64,000 bases of DNA from Myxococcales bacterium (GCA_021787845.1 JAJYLH010000015.1:6059-70058), one strand, 5' to 3'. Positions 19,322 to 60,433 are shown, numbered from the stretch's first letter. Notes: generated by a model not told the origin, from the sequence alone. Program-made: numbers and translations.

Positions 19322-19366
19322 CGGACCAGACCGATCCGTCGGATCCGACCGATCGGTCTGACCGGT
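19322..19366. repeat. GATC 9-bp-period palindromic array 1
   Basis: GATC at 19333, 19342 and 19351. 34-bp palindrome 19327-19360 with one mismatched pair. Confidence 0.9.
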
Positions 19367-19466
19367 GCCGGCGCCGCCCTACCGGACCTCCCCGGCCGCA
19401 CGTGCGCGCAGGCGCGCCGCACTGCCTGGATGGAGTGCAGCTTCCCCGCTTGATCACGCGCCGCCG

Positions 19467-20043
19467 ATGCGCCTGACGTTCCCCGCAACCGGCCACCGAC
19501 AGCGTTCCCCCCCTAAGCGACGGACGCTGAGCTTGAACGGGCGCTGGCAGCAACGACACGCGCTCGACGACGAGAAGTCGTCACGCCGGTCTTCGCCCGC
19601 GCCGGAGGAGCGACTGGGCATCGCCGCGACGCGAGGCATCTTCCGCTTCGGCATCACGCCCTACTGCGCCGCTCTCATGGACCAGGGGCACTTCTGGTGT
19701 CCGATTCGGTGCCAGGCGATACCGCTCCCGCAGGAGGCGACCGCTCGCGCCGAGGAGCTGCTCGATCCGGACGGCGAGGACCGGCATCGCCCCCTCCGGC
19801 CAACGTCCACCGCGATCCTCACCGGGTGCTGCTCCTCGCGTTCGACCGCGGCAGCGTCTATTGCCGCCACTGCACCCTCCGGCGGCTGATGGGCCACGGC
19901 GCCGCCGATTTCGATCGCGAGGCGCTGGACGAAGCGGTCGCGTGCGCGCGCGCACCCGCGGGTCCGCGCGGTGCTCGTGTCGGGAGGGAATCCGCTCCTG
20001 CTCTCCACCGAGCGGCTGGCGCGGCCGCTCGACGATCGGCGCT
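19467..20043 (+). pseudogene. Frameshifted, truncated duplicate of the 5' half of the kamA-like gene at 23763
   Basis: Long near-identical DNA blocks (e.g. GGCATCTTCCGCTTCGGCATCACGCCCTAC, CTGCTCTCCACCGAGCGGCTGGCGCGG). KamA peptides are split across several frames. Confidence 0.9.
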
Positions 20044-20064
20044 TGCTGCTAGTCTTTCGCGGCT

Positions 20065-21603
20065 GTGAGCGACCGGCTGGCGCGCAACGCGTTCTACCTC
20101 ACCCTTTCGAGCATCGGCCAACGAGTCGTCTCGTTCGTCTACTTCCTGCTCTTGGCGCGCGTGCTGCAACCCGAGCGGATCGGCCGCTACTGGATTGCGC
20201 TCGCGCTGGTCGGCGCCTTCCACTTCGTCGCGGACCTCGGCACGCCGTCGTTCATCGTTCGCGAGATCGCGAAGGACCCTGCGCAAGCGCTGCCGCTGGC
20301 CCGCCGGACGCTCGCGCTCAAGCTGCCGGCGACCCTCGTCGCGCTGGCTGCCGCGAACGCCGCCGCCTGGCTGCTCGGATACGAGGCGGCCGCGCGCTGG
20401 CTCGTGCTGCTCGCCGGGATCGCGCTCTTCATCGATTCCCTCAACGCGCTTTTCTACGCCGTCTTGCGCGGCTTGCACCTGCTCGTCCACCAGAGCATCG
20501 GCGCATTCACCGGCCAACTGCTGGTGCTCACGGCCGGCGGCCTGGTGCTCGCTTTCCACCCGTCGCTGACGCTGCTCGTGCTGGTGCTCCCGCTGGGCAG
20601 CCTCGTCAACCTGGCGATTTCCGCTGGCCAGGTCGGGCGCCGGCTCGGATGGAAAGCGCTCGTGCCGTCGTGGACCCTCAGCGGCCTCGTTCAGATCTTC
20701 GCCCTGTCGCTGCCGTTCTTCCTCGGAATCACCTTCTCCGGCGTGTCGGAGACGCTCGACGTGCAGCTCATCAAGATCTTCTGGGGCAATGCCGTCGTCG
20801 GCGTCTTCAGTGTCGCCACGCGTTTCACCTTCGCCTTCCAATTCCTGCCGCTCTCGTTCACGACGGCGCTGGTGCCGGGCATGAGCGCGCTCGTCGGACG
20901 CCGCGACCAGGCCGGCCTCGCGACCCTGTTCGAGAACGCGGTGCGGTACCTGCTCCTGTTGGCCGTTCCGTTGGCGCTCGGCATCGGCTTGGTCGCGCCG
21001 GACGCCGTGCGTCTGGTCGGCGCTTCCTACGACGCCGCGGTGCCCGTGCTCTCGCTCCTGCCGCTGGTGCTGATTCCGATTTTCCTCTCGTTCGCGACGG
21101 GAGCGCTCCTGAACGCGACCGGCCGCCAGTACACGCAGACCGCGCTCGTCGGCGTGACGCTCCTCGCGAGCCTGCTCCTGGAGCTCTGGCTCGTGCCGGC
21201 GAAGGGGATGACCGGCGCCGCGATCGGGTCCATCGTCTCGATGTCGCTGCTCGCGTTCGGCGGCTTTCTCTTCGTGCCGCACGTGATTCCGGACTACCGG
21301 CTGCGGCGAGTTGCCAGGCTCGCGCTGCCGATCGTCGCTTCGGGGCTGGCGATGCTCCTGGCGGGCCACGGACTGCGGTCGGCGCTCGCGCGAACCTCGT
21401 CGTCACCGGTGCTGCGGGTGGCAGTGGTCGTCGCCGGTTCGGCCTTGGCGTACGCGGCGGTGCTTCTGGTCACGCGAGGGCTCCACGCCGACGACTTGCG
21501 GATGCTGCTTCGGCTCGCCCGCGGAGGCTCGCGCGGCCGCGAGCCCACCGACGCGATTTCCACGCCCAGGGGCGACGCGGATATCGCCTTGGAGAACCGA
21601 TGA
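20065..21603 (+). CDS. Wzx/MATE-like oligosaccharide flippase
   Basis: LARNAFYLTL, ADLGTPSFIVREIA, AVVGVFSVA and many TM segments. Confidence 0.88.
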   Translation: MSDRLARNAFYLTLSSIGQRVVSFVYFLLLARVLQPERIGRYWIALALVGAFHFVADLGTPSFIVREIAKDPAQALPLARRTLALKLPATLVALAAANAAAWLLGYEAAARWLVLLAGIALFIDSLNALFYAVLRGLHLLVHQSIGAFTGQLLVLTAGGLVLAFHPSLTLLVLVLPLGSLVNLAISAGQVGRRLGWKALVPSWTLSGLVQIFALSLPFFLGITFSGVSETLDVQLIKIFWGNAVVGVFSVATRFTFAFQFLPLSFTTALVPGMSALVGRRDQAGLATLFENAVRYLLLLAVPLALGIGLVAPDAVRLVGASYDAAVPVLSLLPLVLIPIFLSFATGALLNATGRQYTQTALVGVTLLASLLLELWLVPAKGMTGAAIGSIVSMSLLAFGGFLFVPHVIPDYRLRRVARLALPIVASGLAMLLAGHGLRSALARTSSSPVLRVAVVVAGSALAYAAVLLVTRGLHADDLRMLLRLARGGSRGREPTDAISTPRGDADIALENR

Positions 21604-26475: not shown

Positions 26476-28119
26476 TCACCAGCGCCGGCGAACGTAGACG
26501 ACAATCTGCGTCGCTTGATCGATTCCGAACGACAGCGCCGGGACGCGGGTGCCGAACTCGGTCCAGATTTCGAACTCGCGGTCGCGAAACTCCCGCATGT
26601 ACTGGTAGACGGCGATGGTCGCGTCCTCCGGGCTCCAAGCGTAGCGGATGTCCTTGCGCAAGGCCCCTTCGCGCTGGTAGGCGGAAAAGCTCTCGAAGTT
26701 CACCTCGTGGAAGAAGACGAGCGCGCCGCGGGGCGCGTGCTGGTTCAGCCAGGGCAGGACGGCGGTGACGTTGTTCGACCAGAACTGCCGTTGCATCCCC
26801 AGCATCGCCCCTCCGGCAGCGCCGCCGGCCAGCTCGTTGTAGGCGCTCGTGCCGTAGGGCTGGAAGTGCGCGGTGGAGATGGCGCCGGGCACCAGGACGC
26901 AGGTCGCGAGCCCCACGGTCGCCAAGCGCCGATGTGAGGGCAGAAGCGCTCCCGCTGCATCGACCGCGAGCCGCGCCCCGAAGACGCCGAGCACCGCGAT
27001 GCCCGCCATCCAGTGCTTGATGCCGCCGAAGATGGGCGTCGAGCCGACCATGAAGGGGACGATGGCGACCAGGATCGAGAAGAAGAGCAGCCAGTCGACG
27101 CGGTCGAGCGCACCCGCGCGCGCGCGTAACGCGCGGGAGAACGAGCCAGCGCCCTGGGCGAAGAGCTTGATGGAAGCGAAGCCGAGGAGCAGGAGCGTCG
27201 CGACCGGCAGCGTCACCGCCTCGACCCCGAGCGGATAGAGGTGCGGGAACGGCGGCGCCCGAAGCTCCTTTCCGAAGTACTCCCAGGGATAGTTCACGTG
27301 GTGCAGGTGGAAGCGGATCCACGAGGCGACGCGGTCGATGGGGTGGTGCCAGAGAAAGGGCCAGAGCACGTACAACACCGCCGGGCCCGCGATGGCCATG
27401 GTGACGAACGGCTTCGGGATGCGAATGAGGAGGCCCTTGAAGCCCGCGGCCCAGAGGTCCTTGCGGTTCGTGACCAGCCAGTGCGCGAGGATCGCGGGTG
27501 GCATCAAGAGGGCGTTGTGCTTGGTCGCGAGCAAGAGGCCGAACAGCAGCCCTGCCGTCCAGGCGCCGCGGCCCGTCCGCAGCCAGTGGGCGTAGCCGAC
27601 CAGGAACAGGCACCACATCGCCGCGACCGGGATGTCGAAGCAGGCGATGTGCCCATGGAAGAAGTGACGCGGCACCGCCCAGAACAGCGCGGGGGCCAGG
27701 AGCGCCGCCGCCCTACCCCACGGCAACGCGAGCAGGAACAGGGCGAGCGACAAGAGGCCGGCGAAGAGAAACGCCGGCAGCCGGTAAGCGGTCTCGCCGT
27801 CGAGCCAGCCCAGCGTCCGCGTGAACAAGAGGTGCGAGAGTGCGAAGGATTCCTTCGCGAGCGGCGGATGCTCCTGGTTGTAGGACCAGTCGTGGACGAT
27901 GGTCCAGTCCTGGAACGGCCGCGCGACTTGCCCGTGCGCGAAGTCCCGGCCGAGCTCCCGGAACCAGCTTTCGTAATCGTGCGCGGCGGTGAAGTAGTAG
28001 CCCTCGTCACGCACGTGGCCGATGGGCTTGTTCGTCGCCCACATCAGGCCGGCGGTCGCGAGGACCAGGCCGAACGCGAGCGCGCGGTCGAGACGCGACA
28101 GCCGCGAGGGAGGGGACAC
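26476..28119 (-). CDS. GT-C (ArnT/PMT-like, GT39/83) membrane glycosyltransferase
   Basis: DEGYY, EHPPLAK, AYRLP, LLLATKHNA and multiple TM segments. Confidence 0.8.
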   Translation of the reverse strand: MSPPSRLSRLDRALAFGLVLATAGLMWATNKPIGHVRDEGYYFTAAHDYESWFRELGRDFAHGQVARPFQDWTIVHDWSYNQEHPPLAKESFALSHLLFTRTLGWLDGETAYRLPAFLFAGLLSLALFLLALPWGRAAALLAPALFWAVPRHFFHGHIACFDIPVAAMWCLFLVGYAHWLRTGRGAWTAGLLFGLLLATKHNALLMPPAILAHWLVTNRKDLWAAGFKGLLIRIPKPFVTMAIAGPAVLYVLWPFLWHHPIDRVASWIRFHLHHVNYPWEYFGKELRAPPFPHLYPLGVEAVTLPVATLLLLGFASIKLFAQGAGSFSRALRARAGALDRVDWLLFFSILVAIVPFMVGSTPIFGGIKHWMAGIAVLGVFGARLAVDAAGALLPSHRRLATVGLATCVLVPGAISTAHFQPYGTSAYNELAGGAAGGAMLGMQRQFWSNNVTAVLPWLNQHAPRGALVFFHEVNFESFSAYQREGALRKDIRYAWSPEDATIAVYQYMREFRDREFEIWTEFGTRVPALSFGIDQATQIVVYVRRRW

Positions 28120-28175: not shown

Positions 28176-28205
28176 GTCCGATCGGACCGATCGGTCCGAT
28201 CGGTC
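28176..28205. repeat. GATC 9-bp-period array 2
   Basis: GATC at 28180, 28189 and 28198. Confidence 0.9.
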
Positions 28206-28246: not shown

Positions 28247-30802
28247 TCACTCCCACGAAACCGCCTCCACGATGTCCAGCCGGGACGCCCGCCTGGCCGG
28301 CCAGACCCCGCCGAGCGCCGCGAACGCGATCGACGCGGCGGCCGTGGCGAGCGCGATGGCGACGGGGAACACGGTGGGGAACGTCCAGCCCGTCGTCTGC
28401 ACGCCGATGACCTGCACGAACACCCTGCCCATCAGGAGCCCTGCCGGAATGCCCAGCGCCACGCCCGAGACGCCGAGCAGCGCCGCTTCCAACACCACCG
28501 CGCCCACCACCTGCCCCCGCGAGGCGCCCGTCGCACGCAGAATGCCGATTTCCCGCGTCCGCTCCAAGACCTGCGCGAGGAGCGTCCCGACGACGCCCAG
28601 GACGCCGACGCCGACCGCGATGAACAAGAGCGCGTAGAGCAGCGAGAAGAAGTCGTCGACGAGCTTCATGATGATGCCCCGCAGCTCGGCGTTGGTGGCG
28701 ACGCGCAGGTCATAGCGGTCGCCGAGCGCCCGCTCGATTTCGTCGCGCACCCCGGAAGCGCTCGCGCCCTTCGCGAGGTAGACGTCGACCGCGTCGACGA
28801 GGTGGTCGCCGAAGAGGCGGGTGAAGACCGGCCGGTCGAAGATGATCGCGCCCTGGTCGTTCGAATAATCCACCACCGCTCCGGCGACCCGGAACCGCTT
28901 CCGCCCCTCGGGCGTGACGATGCCGATCCGGTCGCCCACCTTGAGCCGGACGTTGCGCGCGAAGTTGTCGCTCACCAGAACCTCCCCCGCCTGGAGGGCG
29001 CGGGTGAAGGTCGAAAGCTTCCCCATCGTCGCCAGCGGGTGCGCGCGCTGGACGTACGGCGCCCATTCGAGCGCGTAGACCGCCACCCGCCGGCCGCGCA
29101 CGTCGCTCCAGATCATCCGCACCCGCTGCACCTCGCCGACGCCGGGGAGCTTGGCGATGTCGTCCGCGACCTCGGGCTGCATCGGCGTGTTCGCGAGGCC
29201 GATGTTCTGCGAGCCGCTGGAGACGAAGACGTCCGCCGGAATCGCGTTGTCGATCCACCGGCGCATCGCGCTCTCGAACGAGCCGACGAAGGTCGCGAGC
29301 GTCAAGACCAGGGCCACGCCGAAGAGCACCGCCCCTGCCGCTACCCCGCTGCGCCGCCGCTCCCGAACGAGCCCGGCGAGGGCGATTCTGCCCGGCGCTC
29401 CGAAGAGCCGCGCCACCGGCCGCTTCATCGCCCAATGCACGACCTCCACCGCGGTCCCCGCGAGCATCGCCCCGCCCAGCGCGACTACCGCGAGGGCGAG
29501 GTTTCCGAACACCGGCGCCCCGCCGACGAGCGGCAGGTGGAGGAGCGGAATGCTTCCGAGCGCCACCGCGACGCCCAGGAGCCGCGCGGGGGGCGAGAGC
29601 GGTTTCGACCCCCGCGGAGAAAGGTCGCGCCGCAACGCATCGACGGGCGCCACCCGGGCCGCTTCCCAGGCGGGCACCAGAGCCGCCAACACCGCGCCGG
29701 CGATGCCGAGGCCGATCGCCGCCAGGGCGAGGCCGAGGGAGACGTGGACGTGGCCGACGTTGACCGAGAGGTAGGCGCTGTTGATGCTCGCGAGAGCCTG
29801 CTTGACGGTCATCCGGGCGAGGAGCATCCCGAGGCCGACGCCAGCGGTGCCGCCTACCAGGCCGTAGCCGGCCGCCTCGATCGCGAAGAGGAGGACGATT
29901 TGCGCCCGGGTGACGCCGAGCGAGCGGAGGGTCCCGATTTCGCGCCGCCGCTGCGCCACCGCGAACGAGACGGTGTTGAAGACCAGGAAGAGCCCCACCA
30001 TCAGCGACACCGCCGCGCCCATCGCGAGGCCGACCTGGAACGAGCGCAGCATGTGCTCGACCGGGTGCCCGTGCGGCTTGTTCCGGCGGACCGTCGGGCC
30101 AGGACCCAGCGCGCGGCGGATCGCGTCGCGCACGCCAGCAGCGGTAAAGCCCTTCGCGACGTCGACGTCGATGCGATCGACGTGCGGGCCGCGGCCGAAG
30201 GCAGCTTCCGCCGAGTAGAGGTCCATCACCGCGACCCGGCCGCCGAACGCCTTCGCCGCGGGGCCGTCGGGCAGGATGCCGAGGACGTGGAAGTCGTGCA
30301 CGCCGCGGCTCGTGCGCATCGCGAGCCGGGCGCCGACCTTCAGCGAGCGCTCGCGGGCGAACGACTGCGACACGAGAACCGCGTCCGGATCGTTCAGGAA
30401 CTCGATGGGGTCCGGCATCTGGGCGCCAGACGCGAAGGCGTTGAAGCCGCGAGAAGCATCGCCGGCGGCGAGGTCGGCGCCGAAGACCTGGAGCCGCGTG
30501 CCGTCGGTCAGCTTGGCGATCTCGACGATGGCAGGGGAAGCGCTCTCGACCCCCGGGACCGCTCTCACCTTGTCCGCGAGGTCGTCGGGAAGCCCGCCGG
30601 GAACGCCGCCGGTGACGACGAGGTCGGCGCTCCCGGAGACGGCGCCCAGGGTGGAGCGAAAGCCCCGGAGAATCGCCTCGTTCGCCGCGCCGGTGGCGAC
30701 GGTGGCGGAGACGCCCGCCGCGATGCCGAGCACCGTCAGCGTCGCGCGCAGGCGCATCTGGAACAGGCGCCGCCAGGAGACGTATCGGAGGAGCCGGCGC
30801 AC
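28247..30802 (-). CDS. FtsX/MacB-like ABC transporter permease (duplicated architecture)
   Basis: TLTVLGIAAGV, QRRREIGTLRSLG and ERTREIGILRATGAS. C-terminal PARRASRLDIVEAV. Confidence 0.9.
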   Translation of the reverse strand: MRRLLRYVSWRRLFQMRLRATLTVLGIAAGVSATVATGAANEAILRGFRSTLGAVSGSADLVVTGGVPGGLPDDLADKVRAVPGVESASPAIVEIAKLTDGTRLQVFGADLAAGDASRGFNAFASGAQMPDPIEFLNDPDAVLVSQSFARERSLKVGARLAMRTSRGVHDFHVLGILPDGPAAKAFGGRVAVMDLYSAEAAFGRGPHVDRIDVDVAKGFTAAGVRDAIRRALGPGPTVRRNKPHGHPVEHMLRSFQVGLAMGAAVSLMVGLFLVFNTVSFAVAQRRREIGTLRSLGVTRAQIVLLFAIEAAGYGLVGGTAGVGLGMLLARMTVKQALASINSAYLSVNVGHVHVSLGLALAAIGLGIAGAVLAALVPAWEAARVAPVDALRRDLSPRGSKPLSPPARLLGVAVALGSIPLLHLPLVGGAPVFGNLALAVVALGGAMLAGTAVEVVHWAMKRPVARLFGAPGRIALAGLVRERRRSGVAAGAVLFGVALVLTLATFVGSFESAMRRWIDNAIPADVFVSSGSQNIGLANTPMQPEVADDIAKLPGVGEVQRVRMIWSDVRGRRVAVYALEWAPYVQRAHPLATMGKLSTFTRALQAGEVLVSDNFARNVRLKVGDRIGIVTPEGRKRFRVAGAVVDYSNDQGAIIFDRPVFTRLFGDHLVDAVDVYLAKGASASGVRDEIERALGDRYDLRVATNAELRGIIMKLVDDFFSLLYALLFIAVGVGVLGVVGTLLAQVLERTREIGILRATGASRGQVVGAVVLEAALLGVSGVALGIPAGLLMGRVFVQVIGVQTTGWTFPTVFPVAIALATAAASIAFAALGGVWPARRASRLDIVEAVSWE

Positions 30803-30806: not shown

Positions 30807-31511
30807 CTAGGCCGCTCCCGCCTCGGCGCGCCGGTCGGAGACGACGAGGCCGTCCTTGAGCGCGAGCACCCGGTCGGCTCGCGCGGCGGCGGTCGGATCG
30901 TGCGTCACCATCACGATGGCCGTGTCGTGCTCGCGCGCGAGCGAGCGGATGAGCGAGAAGACCTCCGCGCCGGTGTGCGAGTCGAGGTTCCCGGTCGGCT
31001 CGTCGGCGAGCAGCAGCTTGGGCCGCGTCACGAGCGCCCGCGCGAGCGCCGTCCGCTGCATCTCGCCGCCGCTCATCTCATCCGGCCGGTGCTCCATCCG
31101 CGCCGCGAGGCCGACCCGCTCGAGCAGGTCTCGCGCCCGTCTTTCCGCCTCCCCTGGGGGGACCCCCGCGAGGAGCGCCGGGAGCATCGCGTTCTCGCGC
31201 GCGCTCATCGTCGGCAGGAGGTTGAAGAACTGGAAGACGAACCCGAGCGTCGTCCGCCGCAGCTTGGTCCGCTTGTCGTCGCCGAGCCCGCCGAGAGCGG
31301 TGCCGCCGACATAGACCTCTCCCGAGGTCGGTTCGTCGAGGGCGCCGGCGAGGTGGAGGAGCGTGCTCTTCCCGGAGCCGGAAGGCCCGACCACCGCCAA
31401 AAACTCGCCGCGAGCGACCTCGAACGACACCCCCTGGAGGGCCGGCACCAGCGCCTTCCCCCGCCGAAAGGTCTTTTCCACCGCGTCGAACCGGAGCATC
31501 GCCTCGCCCAT
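30807..31511 (-). CDS. ABC transporter ATP-binding protein (LolD-like)
   Basis: GPSGSGKST, MSGGEMQR, LLADEPTGNLD and VTHD. Confidence 0.93.
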   Translation of the reverse strand: MGEAMLRFDAVEKTFRRGKALVPALQGVSFEVARGEFLAVVGPSGSGKSTLLHLAGALDEPTSGEVYVGGTALGGLGDDKRTKLRRTTLGFVFQFFNLLPTMSARENAMLPALLAGVPPGEAERRARDLLERVGLAARMEHRPDEMSGGEMQRTALARALVTRPKLLLADEPTGNLDSHTGAEVFSLIRSLAREHDTAIVMVTHDPTAAARADRVLALKDGLVVSDRRAEAGAA

Positions 31512-31575: not shown

Positions 31576-31637
31576 GTCCGATCGGTCGGATCGGTCCGAT
31601 CGGTCGGATCGGTCCGATCGGTCCGATCGGTCTGTTC
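31576..31637. repeat. GATC 9-bp-period array 3
   Basis: GATC at 31580, 31589, 31598, 31607, 31616 and 31625. Confidence 0.92.
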
Positions 31638-31804: not shown

Positions 31805-33295
31805 ATGCATCGCACGTCCTGGTTCGCCGCGCCGTTCCTCGTCCTCGCCTGGTCGACCTCCGCCCTCCCGGGTTGCGGGACGACGCTCGCCTCGTTGTCG
31901 TCGCCGGTCGGGTACGCGCCGGCACCGTCCACGCCGTGGGCGCCGCCCACCGGCTACGCCGTTCCGCAGCCGCTTCCTTCCGCTCCTCCGCGGCTTCCGC
32001 CGGGGCTCTCTCTGGACAAGCTCGAAGGCGGCGCCGAGGTGTCGCTGGCGGACGCGGTCGCCATCGCGCTCGCGAACAATCCGGCGACCCGGGATGCCTG
32101 GCTCCAGGCCCAGGTCGCGGCGGCGAACGTGGCGGGGGCGAAGGTCGGGTACCTGCCGAACCTCTCGGGCGACGTGAAGGGGCTGGTGCAGCATCAGGCG
32201 GCGTTGGGCGGCAAGTTCAACTTCACGCAGAAGGTGATCGACCCCGGATTGACGCTGAGCTACCTCCTATTCGACTTCGGCGGTCGGGCGGCGCGGGTCA
32301 CGCAGACCGAGCGGACCCTGGCGGCGGCGGACTTCACCCAGAACCAGACGGTGCAGGACGTGATCCTCGCGGCGGAGCAGGCGTATCTGAGCTACGTCGC
32401 GGAAGAGGCGCTGGTGAGCGCGGAAGAGGACGCGGTGAAGTCGGCGCTCGCGAGCGTCGATGCGGCGAAGGCACGGGAGAAGGCGGGGCTCGGAACCGAG
32501 GCGGACGTGTTGCAGGCGCAGACGGCGCTGGCGAACGCGAAGCTCGACTACGAGACCGTGGCGGGTCAGCTCGGCATCGTGAAGGGTTCGCTCGCGACCG
32601 CGATGGGCCTGGCGGCGAACGTGGAAATCCAGGTGAAGGTCCAGCCGCCGGCGGAGCCGCGGGAGCTCAAGGTGCAGGTGAAGACGCTGATCGACCAGGC
32701 GCTCGCGAATCGGGCGGACCTCGCGTCGGCGCGGGAGAAGGCGCTCGCCGCCCGGGCGCAGATCGACTCGCTCAAGGCTTCGATGAAGCCGTCGCTGTCG
32801 CTCGCGGGCACGGTGGACCAGGTCGTTTTCCTCGGGCCGCCGAGCGTGACGACCGCGACGAACTATTCGGTGTCGCTCGACGTGAGCGTGCCGATTTCGG
32901 GAGCCATCGCGACCCTGGCGGCGATCGCGGGGGCGAAGGCGCAGGCCGAGGACCTCGCGGTGCAGTCGACGCTCGATGACGAGAAGGCAGTGCAAGAGGT
33001 ATGGACGAGTTACTACAACCTGAAGACGGCGGCGCGGCGGACTCAGGCGGCGAAGGACCTGGTGGCGAGCGCGACCGCCGCGAGCGACGTGGCGCTCGGG
33101 CGGTACAAGCAGGGACTGGGAACGATACTGGACGTGCTCTCGGCGCAAAGCGCGCTCGCGAGCGCCAAGGGAACGCTGATTCAGGCGCAGGCGCAGTGGT
33201 CTTTGGCACTCGCGCAGCTCGCCCACGACGTCGGCGCGCTCTCGCCCAGGAACCTGTCGCAACCGCTCGCGCCGGCCGGCCGGGAGACGAAATGA
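31805..33295 (+). CDS. TolC-family outer-membrane efflux protein
   Basis: SLADAVAIALANNP, YLPNLS, LLFDFGG and RYKQGLGTILDVLSAQ. Confidence 0.92.
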   Translation: MHRTSWFAAPFLVLAWSTSALPGCGTTLASLSSPVGYAPAPSTPWAPPTGYAVPQPLPSAPPRLPPGLSLDKLEGGAEVSLADAVAIALANNPATRDAWLQAQVAAANVAGAKVGYLPNLSGDVKGLVQHQAALGGKFNFTQKVIDPGLTLSYLLFDFGGRAARVTQTERTLAAADFTQNQTVQDVILAAEQAYLSYVAEEALVSAEEDAVKSALASVDAAKAREKAGLGTEADVLQAQTALANAKLDYETVAGQLGIVKGSLATAMGLAANVEIQVKVQPPAEPRELKVQVKTLIDQALANRADLASAREKALAARAQIDSLKASMKPSLSLAGTVDQVVFLGPPSVTTATNYSVSLDVSVPISGAIATLAAIAGAKAQAEDLAVQSTLDDEKAVQEVWTSYYNLKTAARRTQAAKDLVASATAASDVALGRYKQGLGTILDVLSAQSALASAKGTLIQAQAQWSLALAQLAHDVGALSPRNLSQPLAPAGRETK

Positions 33296-34635
33296 ACGAC
33301 TGCCCGAGACAAGACGACCGTGCACCGGCGCGTCCTTCGACCAAGGGTGGTGTCGGACCGCTGGCCCGGCGCCAGGCCGGCGGCCTGGCACCACCGATTC
33401 CTCTCATGCCCGATGGTGACCGCCAAGCCATGCCGTCTCGTCCGATCAGACCGATCGGTCGGATCGGTCCGATCGGTCTGATCGACGGCGCGTCGCCCCG
33501 TTTCCTCGGCGCGCTGCTCGTCCTCGCCCTGGTGGCTTGCGCTCCGCACGGGGGTCCCCCCGGGGCGAAGAACCCGTTCGCGATGGGGCCGGTCCCGGTG
33601 CGGGTGGCGACGGTCGCGCGCAAGGCGGAACCCCTTCAAGCCCGGGCGGTGGGCCAGGTCGCGACGTTGCAGGACGTGGCGGTGATTCCCCAGGTCGACG
33701 GGCGCCTCTTGGCGGCGCATTTCCGGGAAGGAGGGGAGGTGGCGCGGGGGCAGCTCCTCTTCACCATCGACCCGCGGCCGTACCAGGCGGCGCTCGCGCA
33801 GGCGCAGGCGAACCTGGCGCGCGACCGGGCCCAGGCGGCGCAATCCCGGCGGGACGCCGCGCGGTACGCGGCCATCGTCGGCAAGGGCTACGTGACCGAG
33901 CAGCAGGCGGCGCAGGCGAAGGCGACCGCCGAGGCGCAAGCGGCGACGGTGGCGGCGGACCGGGCGGCGGTGCAGACCGCTTTGCTCAACCTCTCCTACT
34001 GCCAGATTCGCTCGCCCATTTCCGGGAAGACGGGGCTCTTGGGTGTCAAGGTCGGCAACGTCGTCAAGGCGAATCAGGCGACGCCCCTCATCACCATCAA
34101 CCAGCTCAAGCCCATCGGCGTGACGTTCTCGCTCCCGTCGAAGGAGCTCCCGTCGATTCAGGCGAACTTCGGGAACGGGCCGCTCGCGACGCAGGCGGTG
34201 GTGCCGGGCGCAACCACGAGCGCGTTCGGTGGGCTCTCCTTCATCGACAACACCGTGAACACCCAGACCGGCACCATCACCCTTCGGGCGACGTTTCCCA
34301 ACGCGGATGAGCTGCTCTGGCCGGGCGAGCCGGTCGACGTGGTGCTGACGGTGGCGGTGCAGAAGGATGCGGTGGTGGTCCCGTCGAGCGCGGTGCAGGA
34401 GGGGCAGCAGGGCACCTACGCGTTTGTCGTCAAGCCGGACAAGACGGTCGAGGAGCGCGCGATATCGATCGCCCGGACGGTGGGCGAGGACTCCATCGTG
34501 CAGACCGGCCTCGCGCCCGGCGACGTCGTGGTGACGGACGGCGCCCTCGCCCTGGTGAACGGCTCGCACGTCCAGATCCTGGGGGGCGAAACCCCTGTCG
34601 CTCCCATTCCCGACGGCGGCACCGAGGTGCATTAA
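33292..34635 (+). CDS. RND periplasmic adaptor (MdtA-like); start is 33292 or 33430
   Basis: PQVDGRL, GQLLFTIDPRPYQAAL, IRSPISG, FIDNTVNTQTGTI and LWPG. Lipobox LVAC. Confidence 0.9.
   Translation: MNDCPRQDDRAPARPSTKGGVGPLARRQAGGLAPPIPLMPDGDRQAMPSRPIRPIGRIGPIGLIDGASPRFLGALLVLALVACAPHGGPPGAKNPFAMGPVPVRVATVARKAEPLQARAVGQVATLQDVAVIPQVDGRLLAAHFREGGEVARGQLLFTIDPRPYQAALAQAQANLARDRAQAAQSRRDAARYAAIVGKGYVTEQQAAQAKATAEAQAATVAADRAAVQTALLNLSYCQIRSPISGKTGLLGVKVGNVVKANQATPLITINQLKPIGVTFSLPSKELPSIQANFGNGPLATQAVVPGATTSAFGGLSFIDNTVNTQTGTITLRATFPNADELLWPGEPVDVVLTVAVQKDAVVVPSSAVQEGQQGTYAFVVKPDKTVEERAISIARTVGEDSIVQTGLAPGDVVVTDGALALVNGSHVQILGGETPVAPIPDGGTEVH
33440..33486. repeat. GATC 9-bp-period array 4, in frame in the adaptor N-terminus
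   Basis: GATC at 33444, 33453, 33462, 33471 and 33480. Translates as [14 protein letters not shown]. Confidence 0.9.
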
Positions 34636-40169: not shown

Positions 40170-40217
40170 GACCGATCCGACTGATCGGACCGATCGGTCC
40201 GATCGGTCCGATCGGAC
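40170..40217. repeat. GATC 9-bp-period array 5
   Basis: GATC at 40174, 40183, 40192, 40201 and 40210. Confidence 0.92.
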
Positions 40218-41299: not shown

Positions 41300-41300
41300 G

Positions 41301-46041: not shown

Positions 46042-47244
46042 TCAGGTCCGGTATTCGGCGTTGATCTTCACGTACTCGGCCGAGAAGTCGCAGGTATAGA
46101 TGCTCTTCGAATAGGTTCCGCGCCCCAGCCGCACCACCACGGTGAAGGCGCGCTTCTTCATCTGCTCCTGCGCGTCGGCCTCCGCTTCCGGACCGAGGCC
46201 CACGCCGTTTTCGACCAGGTCGGCGCCGTCGACGGAAATCGAGACGCGGGCGGGGTCGAGGGTGAAGCCGCAGGCGCCGGCGGCGGCCATCATCCGGCCC
46301 CAGTTCGCGTCGGCCGCGTGCCAGGCGGTCTTCACGAGCGGGCTGTTGGCGATGCGCCGCGCGACCTGGTCCGCCTCCAGCGGGCTGAACGCCTCCTCGA
46401 CGCGCACCTCGACGAGCTTGGTCGCGCCCTCCCCGTCCGCCGCAATCTGCTTCGCGAGGTCGAGGCACACGTCGAACACGAGCTGGCGCAAGGCGTCGTA
46501 GCCCGGCCCCTGCGCCTCGGTGATGGGCGGGCTCTTCGCGACGCCGCTCGCCAGCAAGTAGAGCGTGTCGTTGGTCGAGGTGTCGCCGTCGACGGTGACC
46601 GCGTTGAAGGTGTCGGCCGCACAGGCGCGCAAGAGCTCCAGGAGCGGTCCCGGGGAGATGGTGGCGTCGGTCGCGAGGCAGGCGAGCATCGTCGCCATGT
46701 CCGGCATGATCATCCCGGCGCCCTTGCAGGCGCCGGCGACGGTGACCCGGCGGCCGAACAGCTCCCCCTGCCGCCAGGCGACCTTCTCGTGGGTGTCGGT
46801 GGTGGTGATCGCCCGAGCGAAATCGCGCAGCCCCTCCGGTCTGAGCGCCGCCACCAGCGCCGGCACCGCCGCCTCGATGCGGTCCACCGCGAGCGGCGCG
46901 CCGATGACCCCGGTCGACGCGATGAGCACCTCCGCCGGGTCGACGCCGAGCGCCTCTTCGAGGCTCCCCGCCATCCGCTCCGCCGCGCGCTCACCCGCCT
47001 CGCCGGTGCAGGCGTTGGCGCCCCCGGCGTTCATCAGCACCGCTCTCGCATAGCCCGCCGCCGCCTTCGGCCTGGACAGCAAGACCGGTGCCGCTGCCAT
47101 GTCGCTCTGGGTGAAGATGCCGGCGCAGGTCGCGAGCTCGTCGGCCACGAGCAGCGCGAAGTCGGGCCGCCCCGGCCGCGTCCGCAACCCCGCTTCCACG
47201 CCCGCCCAGCGAAAGCCGGGGACCACGACGTCGTCTCGGTTCAT
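46042..47244 (-). CDS. argJ: Glutamate N-acetyltransferase / ornithine acetyltransferase
   Basis: ANACTG, STGVIG, KGAGMIMPDMATML, DGDTSTND and DGEGATK. Confidence 0.96.
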   Translation of the reverse strand: MNRDDVVVPGFRWAGVEAGLRTRPGRPDFALLVADELATCAGIFTQSDMAAAPVLLSRPKAAAGYARAVLMNAGGANACTGEAGERAAERMAGSLEEALGVDPAEVLIASTGVIGAPLAVDRIEAAVPALVAALRPEGLRDFARAITTTDTHEKVAWRQGELFGRRVTVAGACKGAGMIMPDMATMLACLATDATISPGPLLELLRACAADTFNAVTVDGDTSTNDTLYLLASGVAKSPPITEAQGPGYDALRQLVFDVCLDLAKQIAADGEGATKLVEVRVEEAFSPLEADQVARRIANSPLVKTAWHAADANWGRMMAAAGACGFTLDPARVSISVDGADLVENGVGLGPEAEADAQEQMKKRAFTVVVRLGRGTYSKSIYTCDFSAEYVKINAEYRT

Positions 47245-47259: not shown

Positions 47260-47299
47260 GTCGGACCGATCGGACCGATCCGACCGATCGGTCTGATCG
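47260..47299. repeat. GATC 9-bp-period array 6
   Basis: GATC at 47268, 47277, 47286 and 47295, just upstream of the argJ RBS. Confidence 0.9.
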
Positions 47300-47341: not shown

Positions 47342-47809
47342 TCACCACGTGGTCGTGACCTCTCCGGAGAGCGTCGCCCGGTCGATCACCAGGTCGAACT
47401 TCGCCGCCTGCGTCGTGCCCCGGGGCGGCTGGGCGCTCGCGCCGAGACCGGCGATGCTCGAGCTGCTGTCGGACGCGAGGGTCTTGCCGCCGGACAGCTT
47501 CGCTCCTGCCGTCCAGGGGTTGCCCTGGCGAAAGTGGACGAGGAGCTTCACGTTGCCGCTGTCCACCGTCCAGGCGAAGCCGTCGTTGCAGCTCGAGCGC
47601 GTGACCAAGGCGGCACCGGCGCAGCTCACCGTCACGCCGTCGGCCTTCCCCGCGCAGGTGTCGAACCGAGACTCGGTCACGCCGAGCTGCTGGAGGCTCG
47701 CGGGGTAGAGCTGGACGCCGCCGGTCGCCACCGCGCACGGGTCGTCGGTCTGGCCGCAGCCCGCGAGGGCGAGCGCCAGTATCAACACGAGCGGGAAGCG
47801 CCTCCTCAT
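47342..47809 (-). CDS. Hypothetical lipoprotein
   Basis: MRRRFPLVLILALALAGC lipobox. Beta-rich mature part with several Cys. Confidence 0.65.
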   Translation of the reverse strand: MRRRFPLVLILALALAGCGQTDDPCAVATGGVQLYPASLQQLGVTESRFDTCAGKADGVTVSCAGAALVTRSSCNDGFAWTVDSGNVKLLVHFRQGNPWTAGAKLSGGKTLASDSSSSIAGLGASAQPPRGTTQAAKFDLVIDRATLSGEVTTTW

Positions 47810-47958
47810 GGGCCGGCGAATGTACGCCATCCCAAGGCGGCGCGGCCGGTCGGTCTCTCGAGGCGCCGGGGCCGCTTTCGCAGCGCCGTTTATTTGCCGC
47901 GCCCGCCAGCGTCGGCGTAGAGTCCGGCGCCGCAGGTTCGTGGTCGTCGGAGTCGCTC

Positions 47959-50035: not shown

Positions 50036-50093
50036 GACCGATCCGACCGATCCGACCGATCCGACCGATCGGTCTGATCGGTCTGATCGGTCT
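50036..50093. repeat. GATC 9-bp-period array 7, at the end of the truncated spc operon
   Basis: GATC at 50040, 50049, 50058, 50067, 50076 and 50085. Confidence 0.92.
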
Positions 50094-50141: not shown

Positions 50142-50327
50142 CTACCAGCTCGACTTCGTCACGCCGGGGATTTCGCCCTTGAGCGCGCGGGAGCGGAAGC
50201 AGATGCGGCACATCCCGAACTTGCGCAAGAAGCCGCGGGGCCGGCCGCACAACGGGCAGCGGTTGTAGGCGCGCACCTTGAACTTCTGCTTGCGCGTCGC
50301 CTGGACGATTTTCGAGGTCTTGGCCAA
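50142..50327 (-). CDS. rpsZ: 30S ribosomal protein S14 type Z (zinc-binding)
   Basis: 61 aa, RCPLCGR...[18 protein letters not shown] start. Confidence 0.97.
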
Positions 50328-50380
50328 GCTTCAAACTCCCTTGGAGCCCTAGCGCCTAGTGGCGCCGCTCCTGCCCCACG

Positions 50381-51112
50381 CTACTGCCGAAACGGCATCC
50401 CGAGGTGCTTGAGGAGCGACCGCGCCTCCTCGTCCGACCGCGCGCTGGTGACGACGGTGATGTTCATCCCTTTGATCTTGTCCACCTGGTCGTAGACGAT
50501 TTCCGGGAAGATGATCTGCTCGCGCAGCCCGAGGGTGTAGTTGCCCTTGCCGTCGAAGGCCTTGGGCGAGACGCCCTTGAAGTCGCGCACGCGCGGCAGG
50601 GCGATGGAGACGAGCCGGTCCAGGAACTCGAACATCCGGTCGTTACGCAGGGTCACCATCGCGCCGACCGACTGGCCCTGGCGGAGCTTGAAATTCGCGA
50701 TCGACTTGCGGGCCTTGGTGATCACCGGCTTCTGCCCGGTGATCGTCGCGAGCTGCTCGACGCCGCTGTCGAGGATCTTCGCGTTGGCGATGGCCTCGCC
50801 CAGACCCATGTTGACGACGATCTTCTGCAGCCTCGGCACCTGCATCGCGTTCTGGTAGCCGAACTCCTTCATCAGGGCGGGCACGATTTCGTCGCGGTAC
50901 CGCAGGCGCAGCCGCGCCGGCACCTTGCCCCGCGCCGCCGGCTGGGCGTCGAGCGGACCGCCGAACGCCACCTGGCCCTTCTTGTGCCCGCCGCCGGCCG
51001 GCTTCTTGTCGCCCTTCTTCTCGGGCTTCTCGGCTTTGCCCGCGGGCTTCGCTTCCGCCGCGGGAGCCTTGGCTGGCTTCTTCTCTGCCTTTTCCTTCTT
51101 TTCCTCGGCCAT
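50381..51112 (-). CDS. rplE: 50S ribosomal protein L5 with ~60-aa N-terminal extension
   Basis: [26 protein letters not shown] and GNYTLG. GGAGG before MAEEKK. Confidence 0.96.
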
Positions 51113-56934: not shown

Positions 56935-58140
<1,206 letters not shown>

Positions 58141-58170
58141 CGTCCTCTCCTTTTCGAATAGCTCCCGCCG

Positions 58171-60246
58171 CTAAAAGCCGCGCGTTCGCTGGATGAGCGC
58201 CTCCGCCACGTTCGGCGGCACCGGCGCGTACTCGTGGAACTGCATGGTGAACGTCGCCCGGCCCTCGCTCGCGCTGCGCAGGCTCGTCGAGTAGCCGAAC
58301 ATCTCGGCGAGCGGCACCTCCGCCTGGACCACCTCGACCCCGCCGCGGGGGAGCATCCCGAGCACCTTCCCCCGCCGGCTCGCCAGGTCCGCGATGACGT
58401 TGCCCATGTACGCGTCGGGGGTCGAAACCTCCGCCGCCATCACCGGCTCCAAGAGAATCGGAGCCGCCTTCTTCGCCGCGTCGCGAAAGGCCATCGTCGC
58501 GGCCACCTTGAACGCCACCTCGGTCGAGTCCTCCTCCCGATAGCTTCCGCCGACCAGCTTCGCCGTCAGGTCGATCAGCGGGTAGCCGGCGACGGCGCCG
58601 CTCTGCATCGCCTCGCTGACGCCCCGCTCGACCGCCGGGACGAACTCCTTCGGAAGGACGCTCTCCTTGAGCGCACTCGAGAAGCGAAAGCCGCTGCCCC
58701 GCGCGCCGGGCGCGATGGATAGCACAACGTGGCCGAATTGCACCTTGCCGCCCAGTGGACGTTCGAAGACGTGCTCGGCGGTGGCCGGCTGGGTGATCGT
58801 CTCCCGGTAGCTGACCTGGGGCTTGCCGACGTTGGCGTCGACCTTGAACTCGCGCTGGAGCCGGTCGACGATGATGTCCAGGTGCAGCTCGCCCATCCCG
58901 TGAATCAGGGTCTGGCCGGTCTCCTCGTCCAGCGAGACCAGGAACGACGGGTCTTCCAGCGCGAGCCGGCCGAGCGCGTCCGACAGCTTCTCCTGGTCCG
59001 CCTTGGTCTTCGGCTCGACCACGAGCTGGATCACCGGGGTCGGGAACTGCATCCGCTCGAGGACGATCGGCTTGTGCTCGCTCGAGAGCGTGTCCCCGGT
59101 GACGACGAGCTTCAGCCCCGCGATCGCCCCGATGTCGCCCGCGCCAAGCTCCTCGATCTCCTCCCGCTTGTTCGCGTGCATCCGCACGAGCTTGCTCACC
59201 CGCTCGCGCTTGCCTTTCGAGGAGACGAAAGCGCTCTCGCCCACCTTGAGCGCTCCCGAGTAGACCCGGACGTAGGTGAGCGTCTTGAAATAGGGGTCGC
59301 TCGTCACCTTGAAGGCGAGCGCGCTCAAGAGCTCGTCGTCGCGGGTCTCGCGGGTGACCTCGACGCCGTTCTTGTCGTGCCCGGCGACCGGCGGGATGTC
59401 CAGCGGGCTCGGCAACAGGTCGACCACCGCGTCGAGCACCGGCTGCACGCCCTTGTTCTTGAACGCCGCCCCGCAGAACACCGGGAAGCACTTGAGGCCG
59501 ACGGTCCCCAGCCTGAGCGCGTGCCGCACGTCGGGTGCCGAGAGGTCGCCCGCCTCCAGGTACTTCGCCAGCACCTGGTCGTCGTATTCCGCCACCGTCT
59601 CCACCAGCTCGGCGCGAGCGCTCCTGGCCTCCCCCTCGAGCTCGGCCGGGACCTTGCCGCGCACCACCGTCTCGCCCCGCTCGCCCTCGAAGGTCACCGC
59701 CTCCATCGAAACGAGGTCGACGACACCGCGGAAGCTCTCCTCCCTGCCGATGGGGAGCTGCACCACCACCGGCTTCGCGTGCAGCCGCTCGACGATGGAC
59801 CCGACCGACGCCCGGAAGTCGGCGCCGACCCGGTCCATCTTGTTGACGAAGCAGATGCGTGGCACCCGGTAGCGGTCCGCCTGCCGCCAGACGGTCTCGC
59901 TCTGCGGCTCCACCCCGTTGACCGCGTCGAACACCGTCACCACCCCGTCGAGGACGCGCAAGCTGCGCTCCACCTCGACCGTGAAGTCGACGTGGCCGGG
60001 CGTGTCGATGATGTTGACCTGGTGGTCGCGCCAGAAGCAGGTGATCGCCGCGGCGGTGATGGTGATGCCGCGCTCGCGCTCCTGGTCCATCCAGTCCATG
60101 ACGGTGGTGCCCTCATGGACCTCGCCGATTTTGTGGGAAACGCCGGTGTAGTAGAGGACCCGCTCGGTGGTGGTCGTCTTGCCCGCGTCGATGTGGGCCA
60201 CGATGCCGATGTTGCGCATCTTTTCGAGCGCGATTTTCCGCGCCAT
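58171..60246 (-). CDS. fusA: Elongation factor G
   Basis: [28 protein letters not shown] and GMGELHL. Confidence 0.96.
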
Positions 60247-60395
60247 GGCCGACTCCATCCGACGCGCGAGACGCCTCCTCGAGGTCACGCGCTCTTTTGC
60301 CGGCCCGGTCGGCCGGCCTTCTTGTCCAGTCGCTGCTCGCCCATCGTCCTGGCGAGGGGCAGCCTTCAGCGGGTTCGCTGCCCTGGCTCCGCTGC

Positions 60396-60433
60396 TCCGA
60401 CCGATCGGTCGGATCCGACGGATCGGTCCGAAC
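60396..60433. repeat. GATC 9-bp-period array 8, in the rpsG-fusA spacer
   Basis: GATC at 60403, 60412 and 60421. Confidence 0.88.

Follow-up and report, generated by a model that had tools for sequence, protein, structure and literature searches.

MITEs, such as the Correia elements, are non-autonomous, hairpin-forming, high-copy sequences. They can be transcribed together with adjoining genes, and they have terminal inverted repeats and target-site duplications made by DDE transposases. The intervening sequences (IVS) of 23S rRNA consist of a small gene dropped into transcribed DNA, with self-complementary bounds; to our knowledge their stems are not 9-bp arrays and no dispersal of solo IVS ends has been described. 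Avd, the DGR protein, works with a reverse transcriptase, and we know of no explanation for the role of the four-helix-bundle/zinc-ribbon relatives of Avd and the IVS proteins. The Rickettsia palindromic elements (RPEs) are about 100-150 bp long, non-periodic and confined to Rickettsia, with no associated gene that we know of; as Ogata et al. reportedly described in 2000, they lie in frame in conserved protein genes and are translated as extra peptide segments. REP/BIME sequences and REPINs with their RAYT (TnpA-REP) are short imperfect palindromes present in hundreds of copies (PMC3733652, PMC3116915, PMC8266576), and the GGGNATC heptamers of Xanthomonas and Nostoc are, in abstract, G-rich, quadruplex-forming and strand-asymmetric (Rehm et al. 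2015, PMC4692102).

We analyzed a 64-kb stretch of Myxococcota DNA (the window) containing runs of three to six nonamers of the form GATC-N-G-W-C-N. The eight arrays, 35 GATC and exact 9-bp spacing reported in a first-pass annotation were all recovered in place. The pattern GATC-N5-GATC-N5-GATC has 19 matches in the window, as compared with a mean of 0.01 in 100 dinucleotide-preserving shuffles, none of which reached 19. GATC-GATC spacings of exactly 9 bp number 27, all inside the eight arrays, and any other spacing occurs at most four times. All eight arrays fold as hairpins (-23 to -44 kcal/mol). According to our gene calls, which throughout are a crude approximation based on GC3 and codon use, two arrays lie in divergent, five in tandem and one in convergent contexts. 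Beyond the half-units GWCC...GGWC the flanks have nothing in common, in agreement with the annotation. Its description of both the 4-mer and the 5-mer as palindromic holds for GATC but not for the linker, where the GWC core alone is palindromic and GGTCG, CGACC and GGTCT are not.

Array 1 (19322..19364; three GATC in the run 19333-19354, plus degenerate half-units; RNA hairpin -27.6 kcal/mol, z -3.4) lies between divergent genes for a giant PKD-repeat protein (14010-19232, - strand) and a Wzx-like flippase (20065-21603, + strand). Array 2 (28176..28205; three GATC, run 28180-28201; -23.7 kcal/mol, z -2.7) is found 3' to an FtsX/MacB-type permease gene (28247-30802, -) and 5' to a gene at 26476-28119 (-). 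The other divergent gap, between genes for an ABC ATPase (30807-31511, -) and an outer-membrane efflux protein (OEP; 31805-33295, +), holds array 3 (31576..31632; six GATC, run 31580-31628; -41.6 kcal/mol, z -5.0). Array 4 (33440..33487; five GATC, run 33444-33483; -36.9 kcal/mol, z -4.6) is located within a single efflux operon, between the OEP gene and a HlyD-family fusion-protein gene. The annotation had placed seven arrays between genes in mixed orientations; divergent, tandem and convergent settings were indeed all found, but array 4 may form the N-terminus of the HlyD-type gene, given an ATG at 33430. Array 5 (40170..40217; five GATC, run 40174-40213; -35.7 kcal/mol, z -5.2) is 3' to cydB (40277-41299, -) and 5' to a gene at 38899-40032 (-). 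Array 6 (47260..47299; four GATC, run 47268-47298; -30.2 kcal/mol, z -4.0) begins 16 bp 5' to the start codon of argJ (46042-47244, -) and is 3' to a small gene (47342-47830, -). The convergent gap past rpsN (S14, 50142-50327, -), at the end of a ribosomal-protein operon, contains array 7 (50036..50093; six GATC, run 50040-50088; -44.4 kcal/mol, z -6.3), whose left arm is (CGACC-GATC)x3-4 and whose right arm is (GATC-GGTCT)x3. Array 8 (60396..60428; three GATC, run 60403-60424; -22.9 kcal/mol, z -3.2) is within the str operon, between rpsG (S7, 60561-61031, -) and fusA (EF-G, 58171-60258, -).

A genome-wide scan found 354 arrays in the 6.2-Mb genome: 52 with three GATC, 120 with four, 156 with five, 19 with six and seven longer. 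GATC pairs 9 bp apart number 1465, whereas no other spacing between 4 and 39 bp exceeds 349; a four-GATC pattern has 501 matches genome-wide and its backward-read control has none. The nGWCn linkers noted in the window proved to be the sole linker type in 336 of the 354 arrays. Each array is an imperfect palindrome of GATC-N-GWC-N units, 30-50 bp long (mostly 31-40 bp), that forms a strong hairpin with 8-bp helices and single mismatches between them. Either strand can fold in this way because GAC-type units favor the left side of the array and GTC-type units the right: linker switches from A to T number 435 versus 213 from T to A, and among 344 arrays scored the order is A before T in 160 and T before A in 21. 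The commonest layout (the 'ATAT' pattern) has two 12-bp palindromes, GACCGATCGGTC, 18 bp apart. Unit number ranges from 3 to 10, and the arms can be unequally expanded, as in array 7 of the window and the 10-GATC array on contig C24. The family is apparently a real, dispersed and undescribed kind of selfish DNA. Its novelty, suspected in the annotation, is borne out insofar as we found no published description of a GATC nonamer array family, and a gathering-score search of the entire window against Rfam 15 gave no matches.

The arrays answer to the description of a REP palindrome (20-40 bp, high copy, mainly extragenic). Like REPs and REPINs in the sources consulted, they are mostly extragenic (316 of 354, about 90%, outside genes as crudely called), favor 3' ends and are rare in divergent gaps; there is also a single-copy gene flanked by the repeats, as in the REPIN-RAYT arrangement outlined there. 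Where the RAYT system has a Y1 HUH transposase gene, the gene bracketed here encodes a four-helix-bundle/zinc-ribbon protein. Unlike REPs, the arrays have no GTAG/CGTC end tag and their stems are built of 9-bp periodic units: GTAG is absent from the flank profiles of the array ends, which consist of GWCC...GGWC half-units, and CGTC is confined to a minor linker variant. The excerpted text of PMC3733652 makes no mention of the word GATC. The GGGNATC heptamers, as abstracted in PMC4692102, are similarly scattered intergenic tandem units with a preferred copy number (four in their case), over-represented between aligned ORFs and under-represented between divergent ones, but they are not palindromic hairpins, and the abstract mentions neither in-frame coding copies nor an associated gene. 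The arrays resemble MITEs in being non-autonomous, hairpin-forming and high-copy, but they lack target-site duplications; outside the element, direct repeats of 3-6 bp at any boundary offset did not exceed shuffled controls when arrays less than 30 bp from a contig end were omitted.

At least 14 arrays are read in frame as part of linkers between the domains of housekeeping proteins, PolA, UvrD, GlnD and FAS among them. The type I FAS has five arrays between its Pfam domains, and in eight of 14 further ORFs tested (GlnD, DinG-like, UvrD, GltD-like, ACC fusion, CysG, PolA and kinase-cyclase) Pfam domains flank the array on both sides. The PolA array is within a 28-residue insertion that is missing in nine of nine relatives. 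Survival in frame is possible because the reading frame GAT-CNG-WCN never holds a stop codon and encodes a hydrophilic D-x-S/T. Insertion in frame in conserved protein-coding genes (FAS, PolA, eight of the 14 ORFs) is a likeness to the RPEs; in their length of 30-50 bp and periodic build the GATC arrays differ from the RPEs as described. Since conserved genes hold arrays in frame and the insertion in PolA has no counterpart in the nine relatives, element-driven or enzymatic dispersal, one of the annotation's suggestions, is the best fit.

The annotation saw no cognate protein, which is correct for the window only. The product of P0001, a gene outside the window, is a candidate; P0001 is the single PF05635 match in a profile search of the genome and its only gene combining a four-helix bundle, a suffix domain and a topoisomerase-type zinc ribbon (253 aa; TIGR02436 6e-8, TIGR04258 6e-19, Zn_ribbon_Top1 3e-9). 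A gap of 3 bp separates its stop codon from one array, and a second array overlaps its start; only 31 of 4486 called genes have arrays on each side at 250 bp or less. Four-helix-bundle genes were among the candidate partners listed in the annotation, and the sole one in the genome is thus bracketed; reverse transcriptases were also listed, and none was found. P0001 shares its protein superfamily (PF05635/TIGR02436) with the S23p ORF of the 23S rRNA IVS and with Avd. As with the IVS, a small gene in transcribed DNA is bounded by self-complementary sequence; unlike Avd, it has no reverse transcriptase in its genome.

Homologues of P0001 at 64-69% identity occur in Desulfuromonadales, Acidobacteriota and Verrucomicrobiota. 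Eighty metagenomic homologues (53-69% identity) carry about 124 arrays in four fixed slots: the N-terminus has 25, the two interdomain linkers 44 and 37, and the downstream slot 18. The N-terminal count may be inflated, since the search used six peptide probes of which one was array-encoded. Their far flanks contain nine arrays in 244 kb. Homologues without strict arrays have decayed D-x-S/T remnants, and these remnants, together with the recurrence of the four slots, argue that the arrays are inherited with the gene, which is both bracketed and split at its domain borders by 9-bp GWC-core tandem arrays. More distant paralogues have other period-9 units (GTCCGACAA, GGACGTATA, TGTCCACAC) in matching places at 15 of 20 loci, with period 9 in 28 of 64 tandem-repeat rows. 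GTCNGAC-type arrays number zero in both G000 and G041; three genomes in which the gene itself has that unit contain 10, 4 and 19, and all 19 in the last are within 17 kb of the gene. In five of five genomes tested, the dispersed arrays agree with the unit of the resident gene. The gene is present in none of 40 array-free relatives. Among 121 Verrucomicrobiota, TIGR04258 occurs in 14 of 16 array-positive and 38 of 105 array-negative genomes (Fisher p 1e-4), a correlation that is partly circular because arrays sit within the gene itself. Neighbour genes are not conserved (the biggest shared group is at 7 of 80 loci). This genome has no further fragments of the gene, and the five arrays within 20 kb either side of it, versus 2.3 expected, are no significant excess (P 0.08). 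The protein model (mean pLDDT 86) has a bundle similar to Xcc0516/S23-family structures and a zinc ribbon similar to the Zf-GRF domains of NEIL3 and APE2, domains that bind single-stranded DNA.

From these observations, we think it probable, at roughly 60%, that the arrays are solo copies of a REP/RPE-like selfish palindrome that is the cis element of a four-helix-bundle gene cassette. The cassette would comprise a single gene moving between phyla, its product joining the four-helix bundle (TIGR02436) and suffix (TIGR04258) to a topoisomerase/GRF-type zinc ribbon, with nonamer arrays making the two gene ends and the two interdomain linkers. Within this genome the small palindrome would have multiplied to about 350 copies, persisting where it does little harm: at gene 3' ends, in operon spacers and in flexible in-frame linkers of multidomain proteins. 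The protein may use its zinc ribbon and multimeric bundle to bind the array, folded or single-stranded, and may promote copying of the array; alternatively, solo arrays may be leftovers of cassette insertions from which the gene was deleted by array-array recombination. Any effects on mRNA ends or Dam methylation would be by-products. More tentatively, these proteins could be the trans-acting factor of a new class of transposase-less mobile elements with 9-bp-periodic hairpin ends, each protein recognizing the array type that belongs to it, in single-stranded or hairpin DNA form, and driving the copying of that array, and the solo arrays being miniature derivatives. If so, the solo arrays, being stop-free, would double as ready-made in-frame linkers in host proteins.

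The tie between array and gene is not absolute. Six of 11 GATC-array genomes examined hold a gene with the same unit; a close (at least 58%) homologue with GATC arrays is missing in the other five, which are Oligosphaera G041, with the largest expansion (909 three-GATC matches, runs of at least 14 units), G410 and G433 (255 and 60 such matches), and G068 and G086 (10 and 32 four-GATC matches). G086, which is 98% complete, has no suffix-domain gene whatsoever. An independent selfish palindrome, spread by another mobiliser or by host replication or repair with the four-helix-bundle gene as victim or passenger, would account for G041, G410 and G086, for a protein with no recognizable catalytic domain and for in-frame entry into unrelated genes such as PolA and FAS. 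We nevertheless judge it unlikely in view of the identical slots and decayed remnants in the 80 homologues, the other period-9 units at corresponding places in distant paralogues, and the agreement of dispersed and resident units in all five genomes.

The nonamer is patchily distributed. Arrays were found in 0 of 40 same-order relatives, a comparison the annotation had proposed, and in 3 of 401 Myxococcota, yet they occur at no fewer than 117 loci across many phyla, including Verrucomicrobiota, Planctomycetota and Acidobacteriota, in genomes of 45-77% GC. This pattern counts against a lattice of phased docking sites at which a chromosomal protein, either the four-helix-bundle/zinc-ribbon protein or a reader of GATC or methyl-GATC, would serve regulation, roadblocks or nucleoid organization, because a host lattice should be conserved. 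Fixed 9-bp phase, conserved GATC and GWC with free N positions, the two 12-bp palindromes 18 bp apart and the narrow size of 4-5 GATC would all suit such a lattice, as would the orphan, D12-class Dam-family methylase in the genome. However, a Dam-family methylase is equally common in array-free relatives (19 of 40) and so appears not to explain the arrays, and copies in coding linkers of at least nine unrelated proteins and in the str operon make little sense for binding. We consider a lattice improbable; the annotation's methylation-reading version is likewise unsupported, and nothing points to its decoy.

Placement is biased. By the crude gene calls, 109 arrays are convergent, 176 tandem, 31 divergent and 35 coding, with three at contig edges; density per kb of gap is 0.70, 0.33 and 0.12 in convergent, tandem and divergent gaps, a 5.8-fold ratio of convergent to divergent. 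In tandem gaps the median distance is 59 bp to the upstream stop versus 102 bp to the downstream start. With the strong hairpins, this would fit host-serving RNA structures, either terminators without a U-tract or 3'-end mRNA stabilizers as proposed for REP elements, but purifying selection on insertions predicts the bias equally well. Copies also lie between rpsG and fusA, within the efflux operon, in the 31 divergent gaps and in coding sequence; Rfam gave no match, and all 40 relatives manage without arrays. No T-run follows the arrays: at +5 to +20 of the right flank, T is found in 9-27% of copies (31 to 94 of about 354). An intrinsic terminator was rejected for this reason. A host-serving hairpin is thus quite improbable. 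Simple repeats that arose on the spot through slippage and hairpin-templated repair at GATC palindromes, with no transfer between sites, could yield 3 to 10 units, unequal arms (array 7, the C24 array) and the long Oligosphaera runs, but are very improbable (the annotation, too, had found simple slippage the poorer fit), since copy size peaks at 4-5 GATC (276 of 354) with no decay, the backward-read control is empty, 354 independent origins of one nonamer would be needed against none in 40 relatives of similar GC content, the same unit occurs in genomes of 45-77% GC from many phyla, and the PolA insertion came as a ready-made 28 residues.

RAYT genes were a further candidate in the annotation. 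The sole Y1_Tnp match over cut-off (C24:50245-50709) has no GATC array beside it; this RAYT-like gene is flanked instead by a different, GTAG-type repeat with about 168 half-sites genome-wide.

The eight runs of GATC at 9-bp spacing listed for the window by the first-pass annotation were all confirmed in coordinates and spacing. In order they hold 3, 3, 6, 5, 5, 4, 6 and 3 GATC, 35 in total, in DNA of 69% GC. The three-GATC pattern is matched 19 times in the window, against a mean of 0.01 in 100 dinucleotide-preserving shuffles, none of which reached 19, and all 27 of the 9-bp-spaced GATC pairs fall within the eight runs. Tandem Repeats Finder recovered all eight, assigning periods of 9 or 18; it also reported a C-rich tract at 42971-42999, with consensus unit CCCCCCCCCCCCAA in about 2 copies. 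One array lies between rpsG and fusA, another in an efflux operon between the outer-membrane gene and the fusion-protein gene, and others downstream of cydB, 16 bp ahead of argJ and after a MacB-type permease gene; two occupy divergent gaps. An array of six GATC (50036-50093) fills the junction past rpsN, where the ribosomal-protein operon (L5, S14; 50142-51112) stops. Since the gene beyond is convergent and unassigned, S8, L6 and the remaining ribosomal genes must be elsewhere.

Across the source genome (G000; 6.24 Mb in 153 contigs, 98% complete), 354 arrays of at least three GATC at 9 bp were found, with 3 (52 arrays), 4 (120), 5 (156), 6 (19) or more (7) GATC each. GATC pairs at spacing 9 number 1465, whereas no other spacing from 4 to 39 exceeds 349. 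GATC itself is not avoided, with 28,565 occurrences observed and 17,694 expected from base composition. Four linkers, GGACC, GGTCC, GGTCG and CGACC, make up 861 of 1227, followed by GGTCT and AGACC; the N-G-W-C-N form noticed in the window is kept by every linker in 336 of the 354 arrays. The arrays end in half-units, GWCC ahead of the first GATC and GGWC behind the last. Outside these the sequence is unrelated among copies, which bears out the absence of shared flanks proposed earlier. No target-site duplication was found at the arrays.

The linker W switches along the arrays from A to T 435 times and from T to A 213 times. Among the 344 of 354 arrays with clean W strings (10 were left out as unclean), 160 have no T-to-A switch and 21 no A-to-T switch. 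Because this polarity is identical when read on either strand, each copy is an imperfect palindrome: 6 copies are perfect and 288 have one to three mismatched pairs. The most frequent pattern, A-T-A-T, amounts to two 12-bp palindromes, GACCGATCGGTC, 18 bp apart. As RNA, all eight window copies are predicted to fold into a single hairpin (-23 to -44 kcal/mol, z -2.7 to -6.3), with single mismatches at the N positions between successive 8-bp helices. CRISPR, iteron and DnaA-box readings were dropped, as the arrays lack spacers, are dispersed, and have a unit with no known resemblance to a DnaA box.

A role in termination was considered in the light of array placement, for which we used our own codon-usage gene calls (4486 genes, 83% coding). 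Arrays are densest in convergent gaps (109 arrays, 0.70 per kb of such gap), followed by tandem gaps (176, 0.33 per kb) and divergent gaps (31, 0.12 per kb); 35 lie inside called genes and 3 at contig edges. In tandem gaps the median distance is 59 bp to the upstream stop and 102 bp to the downstream start. A dedicated terminator is hard to square with the copies found within operons and in divergent gaps. Flank composition revealed no T-run after the arrays, and an Rfam scan of the window gave no matches.

Known types of mobile repeat and methylation system were also weighed. The first-pass annotation had named RAYT, methylase and reverse-transcriptase genes among the families to profile for co-occurrence with the arrays. 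A RAYT-like Y1 transposase gene of 155 aa, with the motif YRRHLPHW, is located at 50245-50709 of contig C24, flanked by a GTAG-type palindrome (CAGTAGGATGGACAGTCC...). This palindrome has about 168 half-sites across 49 contigs of the genome and none in the window, and with the RAYT-like gene it forms a second, classical REP system. As this is the only RAYT-like gene in the genome and its flanking repeat is of this different type, the GATC arrays are not its REPs. The genome also has an orphan Dam-family methylase, but the family occurs in 19 of 40 array-free relatives as well. The methylase gene (D12; contig C21, 18908-19777) lies among sugar-metabolism genes, with a GATC array at 19800-19821 directly downstream. 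No reverse transcriptase was found, and PADLOC defence models gave no matches.

Copies in coding genes are read mainly in the frame GAT-CNG-WCN, which encodes D-x-S/T and in which a stop codon is impossible. A type I fatty-acid synthase of 3718 residues has five arrays between Pfam domains, one of them read DRTDRTDRSDR... The enzyme has the fungal/CMN layout and precedes a fused acetyl-CoA carboxylase of 1907 aa (contig C82, 796-18313); together the two contain seven in-frame arrays. Fourteen further ORFs were chosen for an array deep within a long reading frame. In eight of them the array is flanked on either side by Pfam domains: GlnD, UvrD, CysG, DNA polymerase I, a DinG-like helicase, a GltD-like oxidoreductase, an acetyl-CoA carboxylase fusion with two arrays and a kinase-receiver-cyclase protein. 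Sulfite reductase probably belongs with these, and five gave no evidence. Comparison with empty sites succeeded only for PolA, where the array lies within a 28-residue insertion missing from all nine aligned relatives; the fatty-acid synthase linker region, with no homologue in 12 same-order relatives, and the argG synteny adjoining the P0001 cassette described below, which is not conserved, gave no usable comparison. Thus the in-frame copies behave as an inserted element tolerated in linkers. In this they resemble the Rickettsia palindromic elements.

The four-GATC pattern has 501 matches in the source genome and none in 40 relatives of the same order; read backward as a control, it gave no matches. 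Only 3 of 401 sampled Myxococcota genomes have it (501, 32 and 10 matches). At least 117 array loci, with a surrounding GC content of 45-77%, emerged from a scan of one genome per species; their sources include Planctomycetota, Verrucomicrobiota, Lentisphaeria, Hydrogenedentota, Acidobacteriota and Desulfobacterota. There are 482 matches in Oligosphaera ethanolica DSM 24202, 56 in a Limisphaerales genome and 50 in an acidobacterial MAG. Within Verrucomicrobiota, 16 of 121 genomes have the three-GATC pattern, five of them as expansions (909, 255, 60, 46 and 14). This patchy spread points to horizontal transfer and lineage-specific bursts. At two Oligosphaera loci (L120, 7880-8200; L121, 8260-8410) composite elements are repeated in tandem, each built of arms (GATCNGACG)n on the left and (GATCAGTCC)n on the right, the latter with up to 14 units, about a fixed centre CGACGACCT; their outer flanks are conserved.

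The earlier statement that no cognate protein is visible stands for the window; genome-wide it does not, since a candidate four-helix-bundle gene lies outside the window. The sole PF05635 match in the genome is on the minus strand of contig C24, at 17167-17925. Its product, P0001, has 253 residues and matches the four-helix bundle (TIGR02436, 6e-8), a suffix domain (TIGR04258, 6e-19) and a zinc ribbon (Zn_ribbon_Top1, 3e-9). One array ends 3 bp from the stop codon, and a second overlaps the start of the gene and is read as peptide; arrays within 250 bp on both sides are found for only 31 of the 4486 called genes (0.7%). Homologues sharing 64-69% identity were found in three genomes, one each from Desulfuromonadales, Acidobacteriota and Limisphaerales; the Limisphaerales gene has arrays at each end and inside. 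A metagenome scan gave 80 homologues (53-69% identity), 57 of which have an array inside the gene. Their approximately 124 arrays fall at four fixed positions: at the N-terminus or upstream (25, a count that may be inflated as one of the six fishing peptides was array-encoded), between bundle and suffix (44), between suffix and zinc ribbon (37) and downstream (18). The 244 kb of far flanks contain just 9 arrays. Inside the gene the arrays are translated as D-x-S/T linkers, with a decayed D-x-S/T repeat where the strict DNA pattern is gone. The gene has no conserved neighbours, the biggest shared group comprising 7 of the 80 loci.

The structural model of P0001 (pLDDT 86) resembles the Xcc0516/S23-family bundle and, in its zinc ribbon, the Zf-GRF fingers of NEIL3 and APE2, which bind single-stranded DNA. 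A PDB sequence search gave matches at E 0.2-0.8 only. The nearest solved bundle, Xcc0516 (PDB 2gsc), is from Xanthomonas campestris, which PMC4692102 places among organisms rich in dispersed heptamer repeats.

Co-occurrence profiling of the four-helix-bundle family, also suggested earlier, bore fruit: the suffix-domain gene is commoner in array-bearing genomes, although the link is not absolute. TIGR04258 scored above cut-off in 31 of 40 array-locus genomes (40 of the at least 117 loci, one per genome, in list order) and in none of 14 control genomes; in the 40 array-free relatives no copy of the gene was detected at E 1e-8 or better. Among Verrucomicrobiota, TIGR04258 is carried by 14 of the 16 genomes with arrays and 38 of the 105 without (odds ratio 12, one-sided Fisher p 1.2e-4), and by 5 of 5 expansion genomes and 47 of 116 others (p 0.013), figures in which related genomes are non-independent and arrays within the gene introduce some circularity. 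Period-9 repeats were found near 15 of 20 further suffix-domain genes, the top-scoring 20 of 88 listed hits and all from different genomes; 28 of 64 tandem-repeat rows round these genes have period 9, with units such as GTCCGACAA. Oligosphaera paralogues have units GGACGTATA, ATGGGACAG or TGTCCACAC (x52). The repeat family is therefore broader than the GATC type. GTCNGAC-type arrays are absent from the source genome and from Oligosphaera (G041), and number 10, 4 and 19 in three genomes whose resident genes carry the GTCNGAC unit and which have no GATC arrays; the dispersed array type thus follows that of the resident gene. At one locus of a 5.2-Mb verrucomicrobial genome (L279; G455, contig C3, 177500-197000), all 19 GTCNGAC-type matches lie in 17 kb round the four-helix-bundle gene, several in ordinary intergenic gaps and others in the gene, which suggests local spread or an acquired island.

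Several observations count against the gene link. A close homologue with GATC arrays is missing from 5 of 11 GATC-array genomes examined (Oligosphaera, G410, G433, G068 and G086), and G086 has no suffix-domain gene at all. Oligosphaera is the largest expansion and a one-contig isolate genome, yet lacks such a homologue; its copies also differ in build, with the CGACGACCT centre and conserved outer flanks. P0001 has no recognisable catalytic domain, no gene remnants were found beside solo arrays (dispersed copies away from the cassette), and the local array excess round the gene in the source genome is not significant. The negative results for reverse transcriptase, PADLOC models and target-site duplications also weigh against the link. 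Searches for a vehicle gave one weak viral locus, matching in the zinc ribbon only, and one plasmid suffix-domain gene (Prevotella nigrescens, 41% identity); in the other plasmid records listed, the match is confined to the zinc-ribbon end of the query.

On the best-supported reading, the array is a selfish palindrome of REP/RPE-like kind and serves as the cis element of a four-helix-bundle/zinc-ribbon gene cassette that travels horizontally; in the source genome it has been amplified to about 350 solo copies. New copies might arise when the protein assists the copying of a hairpin or single strand, or through insertion of the cassette and subsequent array-array deletion. No description of the arrays or their gene link was found in the open full-text literature searched; the word GATC does not occur in PMC3733652, and the passages searched of PMC5524665 and PMC3936711 describe neither. 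Among published systems, REP/RAYT and the dispersed heptamers of Xanthomonas and Nostoc (PMC4692102) come closest.

Should the link hold, the very widespread orphan family TIGR02436/TIGR04258 (PF05635) would gain a first function, and there would be a further repeat/gene partnership, one without a recognisable transposase. A bacterial repeat can be built for tolerance inside essential proteins (PolA, UvrD, GlnD, fatty-acid synthase), which bears on the origin of interdomain linkers and domain fusions. The arrays, GATC-dense and strongly hairpin-forming, recur in many uncultured phyla and can affect genome assembly and methylation analyses, as well as gene calling through false N-termini and fused ORFs. 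At 33430-33490 of the window, the ATG at 33430, if it is the true start, puts an array-encoded peptide at the N-terminus of an HlyD-family protein, before a lipoprotein-like signal; such starts may be mis-set by automatic annotation.
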